Part shown: positions 1 through 43,283 of the stretch, piece after piece
Numbering within the stretch: position 1 is the first letter of the stretch
How the letters are laid out: each line of letters begins with the position of its first letter
Source of the DNA: a virus
Virus record (IMG/VR): IMGVR_UViG_3300021964_007043
Direction: 5' to 3' (one strand)
DNA length: 64,000 bases
Program-made: the position numbers and the translations under genes
Notes under the pieces: model-generated
Seen by the model: the letters and a program-made list of their open reading frames with translations, nothing else
Told to the model about the DNA's origin: nothing
Databases searched by the model: none

Positions 1-3000
1 GGAGTTACATACATTGTATCTTGATCAACAATGTTAGAAATAACATGTGTCATACCTTTGATGATGATCCTATCGCCGGCTTTTAGCTGATCTCTAAATC
101 TTGTATTTGTACCTCTTACTTGGCTATCGTCTACAGTCATAGCAATAGTACCTGCTACTTGTTTTGTACCAGTACGCTGTACTACGCTTAGTTGTGTTCC
201 GTCGTATTCCCAAAAAATTCCGTTTTGATCGTCAAAAATACCAGAACGTACTGTAGCACCATGCCAACTAACGACACTCATTTGTGCTGCAAATCCTAGT
301 ACTGCACTTGTTGCTCCTAGTCTACGCTGTGCTTCAACTTCAAAAGTTCTTTCGTCAACTACTCTAGTAACTGTATAATCAAACTTCGGTTCGTGATAGC
401 TTTCTGTACCGCTATTGTAACCTTCAGTTTCAACGCCAATCAATCTAATAACGCCGCCAGCTTGTACACCGTGGTCATTATCGTCTGTAACTATAGTAAT
501 AGTTGATCCTACTTCTACTCCGTCTGATGTTACACTACGCAAATCATAACTTGGTGCAAATAGCGCACCAGTTGTATACATAATACCTTTACCAGACTGG
601 TAACGAATATAGTTTTTACTTTGACGTATTGCTTGCGAACCGTGTTGTGGACCGCCTGTACCAAGCTGTACACCTCCATCATATGGTCTATGTGTAAAGA
701 ATGCATCTGGTCTTGGATATACTACTCCGTCTAATTTTATTGTAGCAGCATCTATATTTCCTGCTGCTCTTGCTTGGAATGTAAGAGAATCATCTGTTGG
801 AATATCCGTTGCAATGAATGAACCAGCTGCTAGGTTATGATTGTTAGCACCATCATCTGATGTAACTGTTGTAATAAATGTATCTCCAGGTACAAGTCCG
901 TGATTATTTGGAAAAGTTACATTTAATGTAGCTAATGCACTAAATGTTATTTCTTCTAATGGAAGTATATCACCTGTGGTAGCCTCTGACATTGTTACAG
1001 TAGCAATGAAGTTTGCTGATTCTCCTGTTACTGCTGCTTCGTAGTTTTCTGTTACTGTAAGTATTTCACCACCTGTGTCAACACTTGCTACTACGATTTC
1101 TAAATCATGTAATGGAGATTGTCCACCAAGGAGGTCTCCTGTAATAATCATTCTATTGCCGTTGGTATACAGTGTACCTTGGTCAATAACAGTTACAGAA
1201 TATGCACTTGCTGATCTAACAACATCAAATGTTGCACCGTCTCCTTCAGGTAACTCGTTAGTACCTCCAACTGAAGTTACACTACCTGTATCTGTTATAG
1301 CTGTACCAGCTATAGTTGCTCCTGTAATAGTTCCACTAGCATCTACTGTACTAACTGTAATAGTTGCATCGTTTGTAGGTGTAGTGCCTCCTAAAGATGT
1401 ACCTTCTATAACAAAAGTTTGGTTTGTTGCGTAATCAAAACCACCATCATCAATAGTTACAGAATATACTCCAGCTGCAATATCTATTGTAAATATAGCC
1501 CCTGTACCTGACAAGTTTGTGCCTGAAACAGCTAACTTTGTATCTGTGTTAGCTGCTGTACCTGAAACACTAACTGCAGATATTTCGCCAGATCCGCCGA
1601 CATTATCAACTGTAATAATACAATCGTTAGTTGTTGTTACACCACCTAAGTTTGCACCGTCAATAGTAAATGTTTCTGTAGGCAAATAGTTTGAACCTGC
1701 AACATCAATAGAAGCACTATACACAGTACCGTTTCTAGTTACAGTAAACTCTGCACCCGAACCAGTTGTTCCGCTATATACGTATGTAATATCAACGTTA
1801 TCAACACCATAGTTTACACTTGCATTCGGTGCTGTACCTGTTACTGTTGCAGCAGTAATACCTCCTGATCCGTCAACTGTTGTTACTTTAACTGTTGCAT
1901 CATTTGTTCCTGATGAGCCTCCAAGAAAGTTATTACCATCAATAACAATAACATCATTTGCAGTATATGATTCGCCCGATGTATCTATAGTAACACTACC
2001 ATATGTATTATCAGTATATGTAACATCAAATATTGAACCAAAACCTAATCCACCTTCAACAGGAGGTTGTTCTCCTGGTAAATTACCAGTTCCATCAAAT
2101 GCTGTACCTGTTGCTGTAAGTGCATTAATAGAACCTAAGCTAAATATTCCGTCAACTGTAATAATAATATCATTATCGGGACTAAACCCGCCTACATCGC
2201 TACCTAATATGCGTATTTTATCCCCAACCTCGTATGCTTCACCTGCGTCATTTATGCCTGCGCCAACTGCTACAGTATATGTACCTCCGGTCCATGATAC
2301 ATCAAACTTTGCATTAAAACCAACGCCAGTTTCTGGAGCTGCTGATACACCGCTATAGGTAACAGTAGTACCTGAAATATCTCTTGTGAAGTTATCACTT
2401 ATTGTAATATCTTCACCTATAATGTTTGTTATAAATGCTGCAACACCGTCACCTCTATCAATAGCTAAATCTGTGATAATACCTGTTGCATCTGTAACTG
2501 TAAATGTATTCGAACCATTAGAAATATCTTGTGCAATACCTGCTGTTAAATATGTACCGCCGCCTGACGATTGTGTAATAGATTGAGTAACCTGAGAACC
2601 TGTTGGGATATTTCCGCCAGCATGTACTAGTGGAGCACCTAGTTCTGGGGTGTTTCCATCATATGGTATTCTTGTTTCACCTGTTGGAACAGTTAGTTCT
2701 GCAACCATCGTTCCGCTAAAACCATTACTTTCAACAGTAAACACAGGGTTTGAACTTATATTTGAACCAGTATAAAATCCTGCTGCGCGAAGCTGAGTAT
2801 ATGTTGTACTAAGTACTTCGCCGCTTGTTGTGCCTACTTTTGCTTTTGCATAATATCTAAAGGATCGTGTACTAGGTGTTTCAACAATTACAAAACTACC
2901 TTCTGCTCTTGATGCTCCCGCTACACTATTTTCTAGTGCTTTGATTGTTATAGGCTTGCCTGGAGTAAATCCATGTGGTGAAACAGTGTTCACTGTTACT

Positions 3001-4061
3001 AAACTTTGACCTACTCCGCCTGTACCTGCTGATGCATCAGTAGTTACAGATGATACATTTAGTTCAGATCCTGGGACTTCATAAATACTAGGATAGCCGC
3101 GCATCATACCGATAGCAGACCATTTGGTAGGCTGTAGTCCGTACTCAAAGTCAGCGTCAAGCATTGATAGTGCAGGTGCAACACGCATACGTTCAATAGC
3201 ATCTGTACCAAAGTCGTACGGTCTAGTTACAGTTAAACTTTTTCCGTTTTCTGTGTATTCAACAAATATTTGTAAATCATCATCTGCAGATTGCGAAGCA
3301 GTGCTTGCATTTAGCTTTAGAGTTGTAACGCCGTCTGTTGTTTGTAGGTACTTTGGAAAGTCAACGTCTTGTGAGTTATCTACAGTCTGTGCGTCTTTGA
3401 CTTCAATAACTGCACCAGTGTCGTTGTTAGTAAAGTTGAATATAACGTCATTGGTTGTATTGTTAGTAATAAGAAGTATATCAGAAAGATTATACTTTCC
3501 TTGCATCTTAACATAACCAAATGTATTAGGATCAAGTGTTGGAAGCTGTCCTAATCCGTTTTCTATAACATCAACTAAAAATGTTGAAAGCGTAGTTATT
3601 GTAGTAGATGCACTTGCTTCTGCTGTTTTTGTTGTATCAATAACTTGGGTTTCGTCGCTTAAACTTGTAAATGCCGTATTTGTTAGAATATAGTTATTGA
3701 TAAGATTTTTAATGTAAGTATGAGTTACTACCTCGGGCTGTCTATCACCGTCTAACTGAGATACAGAACCTTCCCAATACTTTTGGGCATATAATCTTGT
3801 TTTTTCGTTGCCGCCATAGCGTAGATCATTCTTGTAACTACTTAGTATAAAACCAATATCTCTTTCGCACTTGGATTGGTTGTAAGTGTACCCTATAAAC
3901 GGTGCATTATCTGCATCTATTTCTTGCTGTATCCATGATATTGCTTCTGCAATAATATAGTTTGTATTACTGTCTATAAGTGAATACGCATTAGGAACAA
4001 GATTGTCTTTGTAGGACATTCCTGGACTAAAAACATAATTATCTATTTTTCTTTTTGCCAT
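1..4061 (-). CDS. Large virion structural / fibre-like protein (>1350 aa, runs off the left edge; absent from the ORF track)
   Basis: ATG at 4061 directly after TAATAA; translates MAKRKIDNYVFSPGMSYKDNL...; the frame read at the left edge gives ...GMTHVISNIVDQDTMYVT. Thr/Gly/Val-rich with internal repeats. Confidence 0.85.
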   Translation of the reverse strand, partial: MAKRKIDNYVFSPGMSYKDNLVPNAYSLIDSNTNYIIAEAISWIQQEIDADNAPFIGYTYNQSKCERDIGFILSSYKNDLRYGGNEKTRLYAQKYWEGSVSQLDGDRQPEVVTHTYIKNLINNYILTNTAFTSLSDETQVIDTTKTAEASASTTITTLSTFLVDVIENGLGQLPTLDPNTFGYVKMQGKYNLSDILLITNNTTNDVIFNFTNNDTGAVIEVKDAQTVDNSQDVDFPKYLQTTDGVTTLKLNASTASQSADDDLQIFVEYTENGKSLTVTRPYDFGTDAIERMRVAPALSMLDADFEYGLQPTKWSAIGMMRGYPSIYEVPGSELNVSSVTTDASAGTGGVGQSLVTVNTVSPHGFTPGKPITIKALENSVAGASRAEGSFVIVETPSTRSFRYYAKAKVGTTSGEVLSTTYTQLRAAGFYTGSNISSNPVFTVESNGFSGTMVAELTVPTGETRIPYDGNTPELGAPLVHAGGNIPTGSQVTQSITQSSGGGTYLTAGIAQDISNGSNTFTVTDATGIITDLAIDRGDGVAAFITNIIGEDITISDNFTRDISGTTVTYSGVSAAPETGVGFNAKFDVSWTGGTYTVAVGAGINDAGEAYEVGDKIRILGSDVGGFSPDNDIIITVDGIFSLGSINALTATGTAFDGTGNLPGEQPPVEGGLGFGSIFDVTYTDNTYGSVTIDTSGESYTANDVIVIDGNNFLGGSSGTNDATVKVTTVDGSGGITAATVTGTAPNASVNYGVDNVDITYVYSGTTGSGAEFTVTRNGTVYSASIDVAGSNYLPTETFTIDGANLGGVTTTNDCIITVDNVGGSGEISAVSVSGTAANTDTKLAVSGTNLSGTGAIFTIDIAAGVYSVTIDDGGFDYATNQTFVIEGTSLGGTTPTNDATITVSTVDASGTITGATIAGTAITDTGSVTSVGGTNELPEGDGATFDVVRSASAYSVTVIDQGTLYTNGNRMIITGDLLGGQSPLHDLEIVVASVDTGGEILTVTENYEAAVTGESANFIATVTMSEATTGDILPLEEITFSALATLNVTFPNNHGLVPGDTFITTVTSDDGANNHNLAAGSFIATDIPTDDSLTFQARAAGNIDAATIKLDGVVYPRPDAFFTHRPYDGGVQLGTGGPQHGSQAIRQSKNYIRYQSGKGIMYTTGALFAPSYDLRSVTSDGVEVGSTITIVTDDNDHGVQAGGVIRLIGVETEGYNSGTESYHEPKFDYTVTRVVDERTFEVEAQRRLGATSAVLGFAAQMSVVSWHGATVRSGIFDDQNGIFWEYDGTQLSVVQRTGTKQVAGTIAMTVDDSQVRGTNTRFRDQLKAGDRIIIKGMTHVISNIVDQDTMYVT
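1030..2340 (-). repeat. Five degenerate ~95-aa repeats in the fibre-like protein
   Basis: Recurrent pattern G-A/S-x-F-x-V...Y...G-x-x-Y...I-x-G-x-x-LGG-x-x-x-x-(N/H)D-x-x-I-x-V, e.g. GANLGGVTTTNDCIITV, GTSLGGTTPTNDATITV, GDLLGGQSPLHDLEIVV. Boundaries approximate. Confidence 0.7.
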
Positions 4062-31491: not shown

Positions 31492-32475
31492 TTAAAATAA
31501 CATTCCAAAAAGGAGTGCTCTATTCTTACTTACTAGTTCGTCTCTAGTTTCATTCTCATTTACGAAATATATACCAGTTTTTCCAGTATATTCATCTGAC
31601 ACATATATTTTTGCGCCGTCTGTTGGTGCTAAAGGCTCAACTAAAAAGTCGCCTGCACCCGGAGTACTGTTTATATGTAGTGTATCATCTATTCTAACTG
31701 ACCCTGTTCCCCAAGCTCTAAGTAGCAAGTCGTCTGAATCAGTTGTTATAGTTTCTAATGTAGTACCAGTGATTCTTAAATCTTTAAAGTTCCACTCGTC
31801 TTCATAAACTGTAGATATTACATTACCGTCAATACTAAATGTAATATTACTTAATGCAGCACCACTACCGTCTGGAGATGGTTCGCTATCTGCAACAACA
31901 ATACTTGAAGGACTAGTAACACCGTCACCGATCTGTTTCAAGAAAACTGTAGCAAATGCTGTACTAATAGCATCGTCTACATATTTTTTGTTAGTAATAT
32001 CGTCGTCATCAGTAACTTGGGTTTCATAGTTAACTGTACCACTTACTGTAATAACTCCAGTACCACTGTTTATTAAATGTAAATCACTACCAGCAGTGTT
32101 AATATGGTTTGTTCTAATGCCACTTACTGCACCGCTATCTAATCTAAATGCAAACAGACCTCCTGTATTAACAGGATCTGTAAGATTATCGTCATAGACC
32201 ATAAATGCATTTAGTAAAGTGCCACGGTCAATTTCAATACCAGAACTGTTTGACGGATCTGTAATACCGGCGCCAACTTCTCCTTTATTAAGTACAATAA
32301 TATTGTCCTCAATAGTCATATTAGTTGTATTAACTGTAGTAGTTTCTCCTAATACAGTTAAATCGCCGGTTATTACAACTGTTCCTTCTTCTGTGCCGGT
32401 GTCGAGAGTTATTTGACCACCATTTTGTACTGTGATCTTATAATCTCCGCCATCAACTCTAAAGAACTTTGACAT
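31492..32475 (-). CDS. Fibre-like structural protein, 327 aa
   Basis: VITGDLTVLGETTTVNTTNMTIEDNIIVLN fibre motif; hydrophobic C-terminus ALLFGMLF. Confidence 0.7.
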   Translation of the reverse strand: MSKFFRVDGGDYKITVQNGGQITLDTGTEEGTVVITGDLTVLGETTTVNTTNMTIEDNIIVLNKGEVGAGITDPSNSSGIEIDRGTLLNAFMVYDDNLTDPVNTGGLFAFRLDSGAVSGIRTNHINTAGSDLHLINSGTGVITVSGTVNYETQVTDDDDITNKKYVDDAISTAFATVFLKQIGDGVTSPSSIVVADSEPSPDGSGAALSNITFSIDGNVISTVYEDEWNFKDLRITGTTLETITTDSDDLLLRAWGTGSVRIDDTLHINSTPGAGDFLVEPLAPTDGAKIYVSDEYTGKTGIYFVNENETRDELVSKNRALLFGMLF

Positions 32476-32484
32476 GTGTTATCC

Positions 32485-32847
32485 TTAGATTGCTGTTAGA
32501 CGTAATACTGTGTCAGTTGAATCGTCTTCTAGTTCCCATGTATAACGAGTGTTATCAAAGTCGACTGCTGTTCTATTGAATAGTTTTTGTACTACTTTGC
32601 GTCCGCCGCCTGTATCCATTGCTTCAATAACCATTTCGCCTGCTGCGATAGATGCTGTTGCTTTGTTAACTAAACGACATACTGCTGTTGCAGTACCTGC
32701 ATTGTTAGATACTGTGAACTTGTTAGTTCCTCTTTGGTCTACAATGTATGCTTTTTCATCGATACCACCATCTACATATGCACGAACTGTAATGTTAGTG
32801 CCGTCTGCTGGATCTCCGAAGTTTCTTTTATTTACTGGACGTCCCAT
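32485..32847 (-). CDS. Hypothetical late protein, 120 aa
   Basis: ORF with AGGAGA RBS downstream of a structured leader. Confidence 0.8.
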   Translation of the reverse strand: MGRPVNKRNFGDPADGTNITVRAYVDGGIDEKAYIVDQRGTNKFTVSNNAGTATAVCRLVNKATASIAAGEMVIEAMDTGGGRKVVQKLFNRTAVDFDNTRYTWELEDDSTDTVLRLTAI

Positions 32848-32930
32848 TTGTTTCTCCTATTTTGACGTTCTAAGTCTACGCGGTTGAACGATCTTCCGCA
32901 TAAGTCCTCTTCATCGAGGCTCTTTCTCGA
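32848..32930 (-). promoter_or_regulatory. Structured 5' leader with possible pseudoknot
   Basis: Hairpins TCGAG/CTCGA (32914-30) and TATGCGG/CCGCGTA (32877-902); loop CGTTC is complementary to downstream GAACG (32866-70). Confidence 0.45.
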
Positions 32931-32954
32931 CAATAGTATTTATCAAATAAAGAA

Positions 32955-32984
32955 AAAGCCCGACACAGTTAAGCATCGGGCTTT
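32955..32984 (-). terminator. Intrinsic terminator
   Basis: AAAGCCCGA...TCGGGCTTT followed by TTCTTT on the minus strand. Confidence 0.8.
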
Positions 32985-32989
32985 ATAAA

Positions 32990-33200
32990 ATAAGGGTGGG
33001 TGAAGGACTTGGGTTTACCTCCAACTAAGCGTCCAGATACCGTTTCATCTATCGCCTAGAACCTCAGTTCTGCTTAGTATCGCAGTTTGCGTACTGCTTG
33101 TCTCCAAACTCTACGCCGGGCACTACCCCTAACCAAGTGCGCTTATCTCCTCTAGAGTGGAAATTATTAGCGCCAACCCATATAACAACGTCTTGTTATA
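32990..33200 (-). ncRNA. Candidate stand-alone structured ncRNA (~200 nt), family unassigned
   Basis: No ORF in the track; bounded by a sigma70-like promoter and a terminator; several helices (ACTAAGC/GCTTAGT, GCAGT/ACTGC, GCACT/AGTGC, AGAAC/GTTCT, TGGGT/ACCCA). Confidence 0.6.
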
Positions 33201-33205
33201 TTATT

Positions 33206-33233
33206 AATATAACATCATACAAATAAAAGTCAA
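33206..33233 (-). promoter_or_regulatory. Sigma70-like promoter for the candidate ncRNA
   Basis: TTGACT-N16-TATATT with a TGn extended -10. Confidence 0.55.
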
Positions 33234-33316
33234 CCTTTTTTTAATAAAAAGTTAATCTTTTTTTCACGATATTGTTTGATTAGTCTTTTGAAGTACCAAA
33301 ACGTTAATCGATCCAT
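33230..33316 (-). CDS. 28-aa basic micropeptide MDRLTFWYFKRLIKQYREKKINFLLKKG (below the ORF-track cutoff)
   Basis: AGGAGAAG RBS 4 nt before the ATG; lies directly downstream of the riboswitch-like element. Confidence 0.6.
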   Translation of the reverse strand: MDRLTFWYFKRLIKQYREKKINFLLKKG

Positions 33317-33345
33317 TACACTTCTCCTAGTTAAAGGTTAAAGTG

Positions 33346-33387
33346 CGTTCCTTCGCAGTATGCTACTTCCGTCCCGTAGGATGAACG
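33346..33387 (-). ncRNA. Glutamine-I (glnA motif) riboswitch aptamer
   Basis: CGTTC-A-[TCC TACG GGA]-CGGAAGTA-[GCA TAC TGC]-GAAG-GAACG reproduces the P1/P2/E-loop/P3 architecture and conserved core (CGUU..A..CGGAAGUA..GAAG..AACG) of the glnA aptamer. Confidence 0.8.
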
Positions 33388-33404
33388 TAAAAATATTTAG
33401 TCAT

Positions 33405-33431
33405 AAAAAAAGGCCCCGTAGGGCCTTTTTT
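33405..33431 (-). terminator. Intrinsic terminator after the major capsid gene
   Basis: AAAAAAGGCCC-TACG-GGGCCTTTTTTT. Confidence 0.9.
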
Positions 33432-33451
33432 CGTTTTAGTTAAGTTATAAC

Positions 33452-34624
33452 TTAGCTGAAGCTTAGGTTACCACTGTTAACTTCTACCTTTTCTAGGTAG
33501 TCAGCTGCGTTACCTAGAGATGAAGCAGTATTTGATAGCTCAACATATCCATAACGTGTCATGAATGAAACTGTTGGCTCAAATGTGCCTGGATCTAGGA
33601 CAACACCTGAAGACATTAGTGGGATATATGGGCAGTAGAACGCTGCTGCGTCTGACTCGCTTGAACCCTTATAACCAACTAGTACGTCATCATCTGCTGC
33701 ATATGTGTTAACGTAAACTTTCATTGCGTTGTTCAATGTACCAACCATTTTAGTGTTTGTTGGTGCTTCGAATGTACCTTCAGTTGTACGTGCAAATGCT
33801 GATGTTGTTGCTGACTGTAGAACAGTTAGGATAGCTGGAGATACAACTGCCCAGTTACCTGCACCGCGTCTTGTACGCTGTGCAATACGGTTTGCTGCTC
33901 TGTTGACTAGAACTGCAAGTGCTGCATGCTCGTCACCAACAAAAGTAGCTGTACCGCTAACTGCTGCTTGGTTGAATGTATCTGTACCAGTACCAGCAAG
34001 AGTACTTAGAGATGCTAGGACCTCTTGGTCGATTTCAGCAGTAATCTCTTGAGCAAGTGCTGCCATGATTTCTGCTTCAACATCGATACCGTGCTGTGAC
34101 TGTGCATCCTGTGCTGATTCAAATGTCCAGCGAGCTGATAGCTTTCTGGATTTTGCTTCTACAGTTTGCTTCAAGATTTGAATGCTTAGTCTGTTTCCAG
34201 CTTCGCCTTCTAGTGCTGCTGTTGCATCAGCTTTTGCAGTTGTTGCATTACCTGAATATGCTTCAGCAATCTTGAATGGTGAAAGTGCTTCTTCACCAGC
34301 TACTGCACCAGCTGCACCTGTACCTGCTGTGTCGCTGTAGCGAACACGTAGAGTATGGATTTGACCAACTGGACCAGTCATTGGTTGTACACCAACAAGT
34401 TCATTTGCAATGACTGTTGGCATAACACGTCTGATCACTGGAAGGATCACACGATTTAGTGTTGCGACGTTACCGGCGGATGTAGCACCAGCTGTAGCAG
34501 TCTCTGACAAATACTGTCTTGTATTTTCTAGAGTAGCAGCCATAACTGACTTCTTGTTGCCTTGAAGGCCTTCAAGTAGTGCGCTCTTTGTATCCTGCCA
34601 GCGACTTTCTAGTAGTTCTGACAT
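33452..34624 (-). CDS. gp23: Major capsid protein (T4 gp23-like)
   Basis: GVQPMTGPVGQIHTLR, KSRKLSARWTFESAQD, EITAEIDQE, FYCPYIPL and FMTRYG gp23 motifs. Confidence 0.95.
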   Translation of the reverse strand: MSELLESRWQDTKSALLEGLQGNKKSVMAATLENTRQYLSETATAGATSAGNVATLNRVILPVIRRVMPTVIANELVGVQPMTGPVGQIHTLRVRYSDTAGTGAAGAVAGEEALSPFKIAEAYSGNATTAKADATAALEGEAGNRLSIQILKQTVEAKSRKLSARWTFESAQDAQSQHGIDVEAEIMAALAQEITAEIDQEVLASLSTLAGTGTDTFNQAAVSGTATFVGDEHAALAVLVNRAANRIAQRTRRGAGNWAVVSPAILTVLQSATTSAFARTTEGTFEAPTNTKMVGTLNNAMKVYVNTYAADDDVLVGYKGSSESDAAAFYCPYIPLMSSGVVLDPGTFEPTVSFMTRYGYVELSNTASSLGNAADYLEKVEVNSGNLSFS

Positions 34625-43207: not shown

Positions 43208-43283
43208 TTATAAAAATCCAAGTTAAGTACGTACATAAATAATATGATACATACTATTATAATGTATTTATACGGAGACAAAG

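Follow-up and report, generated by a model that had tools for sequence, protein, structure and literature searches.

The DNA analysed here, hereafter the window, is a 64,000-nucleotide stretch of a viral genome (IMG/VR record IMGVR_UViG_3300021964_007043). On its minus strand the gene for the major capsid protein is closed by an intrinsic terminator, which is followed by a late-type promoter box, a match to the glutamine riboswitch aptamer and an open reading frame (ORF) for a small basic peptide (Table 1). The terminator hairpin of the capsid gene is found in the same place in relatives. The capsid gene adjoins the cassette upstream, and downstream of the ORF lie a sigma-70-type promoter, a manA RNA and a second intrinsic terminator that ends the unit.

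Table 1. Features of the cassette and its flanks in the window, with the corresponding locus of phage Melnitz.
Feature	Position	Strand	Basis
Major capsid protein gene, adjoining the cassette upstream	33452..34624	-	PHROG 138 major head protein, E 2.7e-102
Intrinsic terminator of the capsid gene	33406..33431	-	GC-rich stem of 11 bp with a T run after it
Late-type promoter box CTAAATAT, core TAAATA 33399-33394	33393..33400	-	likeness to the T4 late consensus TATAAATA
Predicted type-1 glutamine riboswitch aptamer (P1, P2, E-loop junction, P3)	33342..33389	-	RF01739; P3 covariation
P1	CGUUC 33387-33383 with GAACG 33350-33346	-	read from sequence
P2	UCC 33381-33379 with GGA 33374-33372, loop UACG	-	read from sequence
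Junction strand CGGAAGUA	between P2 and P3	-	read from sequence
P3	GCA 33363-33361 with UGC 33357-33355, loop UAC; then GAAG	-	read from sequence
Putative expression platform: CACUU 33345-33341 with AAGUG 33323-33319; inner CCU 33337-33335 with AGG 33328-33326	33319..33345	-	pair counts, centroid fold
Shine-Dalgarno site AGGAG, 7 nt upstream of the ATG	33324..33328	-	read from sequence
28-codon basic micropeptide ORF (span includes the stop; ATG at 33316, TGA 33232-33230)	33230..33316	-	conserved frame
Sigma-70-type promoter TTGACT-N16-TATATT	33206..33233	-	-35 box overlaps the ORF stop codon
manA RNA, full-length	32992-33198	-	RF01745, 89.3 bits against 55.2
Intrinsic terminator ending the unit after the manA RNA (unit 32955..33198)	32955-32984	-	
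Melnitz-1 (L001, MZ577095.1) switch and 32-aa ORF	3000-3169		Rfam, family membership

The sigma-70-type promoter serves the manA RNA and is conserved at, or just after, the end of the ORF in relatives; it is context and not part of the switch. In the closest relatives a terminator lies approximately 245 nt after the stop codon of the micropeptide ORF, and some relatives carry a different RNA in place of manA. Further downstream in the window a freshwater-2 RNA (RF02980) was detected at 32845-32920 on the minus strand with a sub-threshold score (41.2 bits against 49.9), running into the start codon of a gene for a 120-aa product. Since 11 relatives have an above-threshold freshwater-2 RNA in the same place, the window's copy is probably real, a divergent copy heading the block of fibre-like genes.

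When the whole window was scanned against 4227 Rfam families, RF01739, the type-1 glutamine riboswitch known from glnA leaders, was matched at 33389-33342 on the minus strand with an E value of 6.7e-8. The score of 49.7 bits against a gathering score of 35, over model positions 1-53 of 53, makes this a full-length match far beyond chance. The initial annotation had proposed a glnA-type glutamine aptamer from the sequence alone, and both the class and every part that it listed were confirmed in place on the minus strand. The type-2 model (RF01704, Downstream-peptide, a pseudoknot) gave no match at its gathering threshold in the window and none at E ≤ 1 on 32400-33500. Scores of 49 to 60 bits were obtained with RF01739 for 14 relatives and the locus of phage Melnitz.

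All consensus upper-case positions in the conserved strands of the three-way junction, ACGGAAGUA and the GAAG of the E-loop, were matched in the cmscan alignment. The nucleotides of the binding pocket are likewise present, namely the first P1 pair (C 33387-G 33346) and, directly 3' of P1, C 33345; the roles of this pair and of the capping C in the pocket have been set out in PMC6698751 and PMC6212724, which also describe the type-1 structure solved by Ren et al. (2015). P2, at 3 bp, is unusually short in the window. Among the relatives listed a pair of P3 covaries, being C-G in 56, G-C in 24 and A-U in 5. P1, P2 and the junction were fixed by the pattern used to search IMG/VR, which leaves P3 as the only free covariation evidence for the aptamer. 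By homology, the predicted aptamer would bind L-glutamine.

From the 3' end of the aptamer it is 13 nt to the Shine-Dalgarno site and 25 nt to the ATG. At least 120 loci with the aptamer core were obtained by pattern matching across IMG/VR, and nearly all of them have a short ORF that opens 21-28 nt downstream of the aptamer and is preceded by a Shine-Dalgarno-like site; among the matches listed, such sites stand at the same spacing in 85 of 85 distinct aligned leaders. The product encoded in the window belongs to a family of 27-38 residues with at least 31 distinct members, marked by a W-C-[FY] motif whose Trp never varies and whose Cys hardly does. The ratio pN/pS was 0.33 among the nine 28-codon members and 0.50 over 30 distinct family sequences, where synonymous sites are near saturation. 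Across these 30 sequences no stop codon falls in the reading frame, against 67 and 71 in the other two frames, for which pN/pS-type ratios of 0.9-1.3 were obtained. The open frame, the pN/pS of 0.33-0.50 and the abundance of stops in the other frames establish the micropeptide ORF as a real gene whose amino-acid sequence is under purifying selection. The basic 28-aa ORF that the initial annotation placed directly after the aptamer was thereby upheld, together with its conservation among the related loci listed.

The peptide of the window has a net charge of +7, a pI of 10.5 and a mass of 3.7 kDa. AlphaFold2, run on the family alignment for a 32-aa relative, predicted one continuous helix with a pLDDT of 90.9. 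A search of the family profile against 1.84 billion cluster representatives yielded nine further tiny members of the family and no link to larger or IF-type proteins. In Pfam the window peptide had no match at E ≤ 10, the 30 relatives were without any match, and DUF4278 was absent at E ≤ 1 from all 31 family members. PHROGs returned weak matches to families of unknown function alone (best E 0.005) and the ESM Atlas no usable match. No match was found by tblastn with the 28-aa peptide and a 64-aa peptide that occupies the same slot in other phages against 50,697 phage records, the queries being too short and the relatives uncultured. The initial annotation had also suggested that the peptide could tune lysis or assembly to nitrogen status. 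A holin or membrane role was considered and rejected: no stretch of 15 residues reaches a mean hydropathy of 1, and a holin-like role is disfavoured because the peptide has no membrane-spanning stretch.

T4-type late promoters consist of a TATAAATA box approximately 6-8 nt before the transcript start and lack a -35 element. The box ahead of the aptamer agrees with this consensus at 6 of 8 positions, and an exact TATAAATA box stands upstream of the cassette in several relatives. In 62 of the 95 distinct upstream sequences of related loci listed, TAAATA is found at -12 (± 1) from the first base of P1; the late promoter box that the initial annotation had seen before the element thus holds good as a position-conserved TAAATA. 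Boxes of the NATAAATAC type lie 5-120 nt ahead of many long same-strand ORF starts in the window, examples being those at 52261, 43271, 32943, 28039, 18020, 12812, 5424 and 4983 on the minus strand and at 43235 and 52291 on the plus strand. TAAATA itself is under-represented, with 61 occurrences in the window against approximately 108 expected from composition. The boxes before many ORFs and the depletion of TAAATA are together consistent with a set of T4-type late promoters. A T4-type late promoter ahead of the aptamer is plausible on these grounds, and the short transcript that it would initiate is presumed to be made late in infection.

In most of the at least 120 IMG/VR loci the gene immediately before the cassette is a homolog of the capsid gene (68-91% amino-acid identity), and in most of the related loci listed the cassette is followed by homologs of the window's genes for 120-, 327-, 111-, 190- and 832-aa products. 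A large clade of uncultured marine phages shares this placement behind the capsid gene as conserved synteny; the capsid type of the clade (PHROG 138) is nearest to the capsids of jumbo phages. The suggestion in the initial annotation that the pairing of aptamer and peptide within a head-to-fibre region might be new did not stand. The pairing is not unique to the window but common to the large clade listed, and it extends beyond the head-to-fibre region, being found behind the tmRNA gene in Melnitz and behind tRNA genes in other contigs. In six related loci (L018, L020, L035, L061, L108 and L113) the box and cassette follow an apparent tRNA 3' end (GGTTCGA.TCC...CCA) and not a capsid gene; such positions after tRNA-like 3' ends indicate that the cassette has moved between genomic settings.

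The cargo of the slot differs from phage to phage and includes the family of 27-38 aa, a family of 64 aa, a family of 50 aa and others, all strongly basic. Comparison of the three main families by hhalign revealed no significant similarity (probabilities of approximately 1%), and homology among them is accordingly not claimed. In at least 11 related loci (L010, L015, L023, L026, L038, L052, L055, L065, L077, L115 and L117) the cassette adjoins pqqA, the gene for the PQQ precursor peptide (PF08042, E 1.3e-10 for one member), which in L065 and L117 is fused in frame to the micropeptide ORF. No pqqA motif was found in the window. These neighbours hint at PQQ-using, perhaps methylotrophic, hosts, and the hosts of the window's clade are probably not cyanobacteria.

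The same aptamer subtype was also encountered in marine gammaproteobacterial MAGs and SAGs (L122-L142), where the helix that follows P1 is extended to 9 bp, CACCAAACU pairing with AGUUUGGUG. These aptamers are often arranged in tandem, approximately 100 nt apart, behind TATAAT boxes and with a competing hairpin downstream; in none of them does a micropeptide ORF stand directly behind the aptamer. A phage-like form of the cassette, in which a TATAAATA box is combined with a GTG-initiated ORF of 77 aa, was seen on three contigs of the 'Rickettsiales' MAG MED657.

The one isolate found to carry the family is the Methylophilales phage Melnitz, for whose glutamine riboswitch Buchholz et al. (2022, PMC9004378) gave the two-piece tmRNA gene ssrA as the controlled gene. 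Four Melnitz records were the only matches to the window's leader in blastn. The aptamer and linker of Melnitz are 84% identical to those of the window and are followed at the same spacing by a homologous 32-aa ORF with the W-C-[FY] motif; the cassette stands after the tmRNA gene in Melnitz and after the capsid gene in the window. The initial annotation had called the ORF of the window unannotated; the window carries no annotation of its own, and the description holds for the homologous ORF of Melnitz. This ORF is unannotated in the GenBank records and in the paper, where an ORF on the opposite strand (gene 88) is annotated instead, which is not conserved in relatives. The Rfam tmRNA model ends 8 nt before the Melnitz aptamer, and the ssrA feature of the record runs into the aptamer. 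With ssrA upstream of the switch and the peptide ORF downstream of it, the published control of ssrA is probably mistaken, and the peptide ORF is more likely than ssrA to be the regulated gene.

Directly 3' of P1 the leader can form a further helix of 5 bp, the tail helix, in which CACUU pairs with AAGUG, the latter lying between the Shine-Dalgarno site and the ATG. An inner CCU/AGG pairing in the window includes the AGG of the Shine-Dalgarno site itself. Over the 85 distinct leaders among the matches listed, pairing in the tail helix reaches 96.5%, and the fourth pair of the helix is U-A in 59, C-G in 22 and U-G in 4 of these, and broken in none. The 9-bp version of the helix in the gammaproteobacterial genomes adds support from an independent lineage. 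Both the U-A and the C-G states occur inside single peptide families, and the change therefore happened more than once; the aligned leaders share kinship, so that the pair counts overstate the number of independent events. The first three bases of the 5' side (CAC) were fixed by the search pattern, and the free evidence for the helix is its 3' strand and pairs 4-5. In the centroid fold of the window's leader nothing but the masking hairpin survives, and this hairpin dominates the predicted ensemble. RNAalifold on the leader alignment recovered the aptamer and not the tail helix, which rests on explicit pair counting. No U-rich terminator was found between the aptamer and the ATG, and in the lack of a U run there regulation by the switch is most likely translational.

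In reporter tests expression rose with glutamine under both the type-1 switch of gifB in Synechocystis and a type-2 switch of Prochlorococcus, which makes both of them ON switches (Klahn et al. 2018, PMC6212724; PMC6698751). These authors proposed that the capping C and its 3' neighbours mask the ribosome site until ligand binds (PMC6212724; also PMC6698751). In the window the capping C, C 33345, begins the 5' strand of the tail helix; the logic of gifB therefore applies and the ON direction is favoured. In the unbound leader CACUU would pair with AAGUG, and in the phage of the window the inner CCU/AGG pairing would also bury the Shine-Dalgarno site. Binding of glutamine would lock P1 and the E-loop junction and draw C 33345 into the long-range pair that caps the pocket; weakened by the loss of this base, the masking hairpin would give way and ribosomes could initiate. 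On such a scheme synthesis of the peptide would be confined to late infection of cells with abundant glutamine.

The opposite direction was also weighed. Glutamine could stabilise P1 and, through it, a stacked tail helix that keeps the site masked, so that the peptide would be made under glutamine scarcity. The tail helix does adjoin P1 without an intervening base, which would allow the two to stack coaxially, and the energy model is a second point in favour of this direction: in a constrained partition function with P1 and P2 enforced and the capping C unpaired, accessibility of the Shine-Dalgarno site in the window was 0.22 in both states, and over the 85 listed leaders the same model gave medians of 0.40 and 0.40. 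Enforcing the aptamer thus produced no opening of the site, and the opening proposed for the ON direction is not reproduced by the energetics of secondary structure. Against an OFF switch stand the ON behaviour of both glutamine riboswitch types in the published tests (PMC6212724; PMC6698751) and the need of the bound state for the capping C, for which, as the first base of the tail helix, the two structures compete. An OFF switch is accordingly considered improbable, and the comparison with gifB suggests that the window's switch is a translational ON switch. On balance, the locus probably represents a genuine type-1 glutamine riboswitch that stands at the head of a short late transcript beyond the capsid-gene terminator and controls whether a conserved, basic, all-helical peptide of 28 residues is translated.

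As to what the peptide does, action in trans on a component of host or phage is the most likely reading. The initial annotation had suggested a role like that of IF7/IF17, in which, at high glutamine, a small basic protein would bind and shut down the glutamine synthetase of the host. The window peptide is small and strongly basic, as is IF7, and a 45-aa cargo with YRG repeats behind the same aptamer in viral contigs resembles DUF4278 (E 0.0017, below the Pfam cut-off), a weak likeness that is no surprise in contigs resembling those of cyanophages. YRG-repeat ORFs also occur in two cyanobacterial genomes that carry this aptamer, and by likeness they are of the kind classed as DUF4278 in PMC6212724. 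For the window peptide and its 30 relatives the searches gave no match to DUF4278 or any other Pfam family, and the profile search led to tiny members of the same family without a link of the IF type; the suggestion accordingly has no support from sequence similarity and comes down to charge and small size. The family is moreover predicted, from one relative, to form a single rigid helix, whereas IF7 is described as disordered. OM43, the host of Melnitz and thus of the only isolate with the family, has been reported to lack glnA (PMC9004378). With these points set against it, an inactivating factor of the IF7/IF17 type appears unlikely.

Less probable again is that the peptide has no function of its own and that the ORF is a cis-acting leader, the act of translation modulating how the manA RNA folds or how far transcription reads through the terminator (32984-32955) towards the fibre-like genes. 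The ORF, the manA RNA and the terminator share one terminator-bounded unit, in the closest relatives as well, and the stop codon of the ORF overlaps the -35 box of the manA promoter; a regulatory role has also been hinted at for peptides behind the related Downstream-peptide motif (Weinberg et al., PMC2864571). Yet the RNA downstream has a conserved promoter of its own, the next terminator lies at very different distances from the ORF stop in different loci, and the peptide is kept in settings as different as those behind tmRNA, behind tRNA genes and next to pqqA. Selection acts on the amino-acid sequence, and this together with the varied settings makes a cis-acting role unlikely and leaves a micropeptide acting in trans as the preferred reading.

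A broader reading can be offered tentatively, as a possibility less likely than not. In marine phages of heterotrophic bacteria the late promoter box, aptamer, masking helix and a basic peptide of 27-65 aa may form a portable, glutamine-gated micropeptide cassette, in which the peptide is swapped among unrelated families behind the capsid gene. The peptides might then be a new class of phage effectors that act, only in nitrogen-rich infected cells, on the nitrogen metabolism of the host or on the machinery of translation or nucleic acids, and every 'orphan' glutamine riboswitch of a phage, that of Melnitz included, might in truth have such a peptide gene as its target.

The closest known counterpart is the gifB (IF17) leader of Synechocystis sp. 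PCC 6803 (PMC6212724), which shares with the window the Rfam family, the three-way junction and the E-loop, the position directly before the ribosome site, a small basic product and the proposed masking from the capping C onward. It differs in that the window's element is phage-borne, with a late-type TAAATA box in place of an NtcA-controlled promoter, a P2 reduced to 3 bp, and a product of 28 aa predicted as a single helix without DUF4278, whereas IF17 has 149 aa. In Prochlorococcus and marine Synechococcus the Downstream-peptide or type-2 switch also places a glutamine aptamer before a very short conserved ORF (17-100 aa), as in the window (PMC2864571; PMC6212724), but there the aptamer is the pseudoknot RF01704, the peptides are of the DUF4278 type and the setting is cellular, in contrast to the type-1, non-DUF4278 and phage-borne arrangement of the window. 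T4-like cyanophages, S-CREM1 among them, carry RF01739 together with a manA RNA in the genome, as does the window (PMC2864571; PMC9964418). The clade of the window differs from these phages in capsid type (PHROG 138) and in its peptides, which are not of the DUF4278 type, and the cyanophage papers list the RNA and name no controlled gene. The statement in the initial annotation that the aptamer class is not new was correct, as the phage cases in PMC2864571, PMC9964418 and PMC9004378 attest. The type-1 aptamer class and its presence in phages are thus known; full-text literature searches found no published account of the peptide family or of the masking helix in phages, and in the literature searched the family is undescribed.

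Glutamine riboswitches of phages have been listed for fifteen years without a named regulated gene, and Melnitz, the one case treated in detail, was assigned the gene upstream. The consistent presence of a tiny, conserved gene for a strongly basic peptide, a covarying helix between the aptamer and the ribosome site of that gene, and a fixed slot in the late structural module turns this orphan RNA into a testable regulatory unit, and Melnitz on OM43 is an existing isolate open to detection, deletion or expression of the peptide. If the peptide acts on the nitrogen metabolism of the host, phages of nutrient-starved ocean bacteria would be reading the nitrogen status of the cell during the production of virions.
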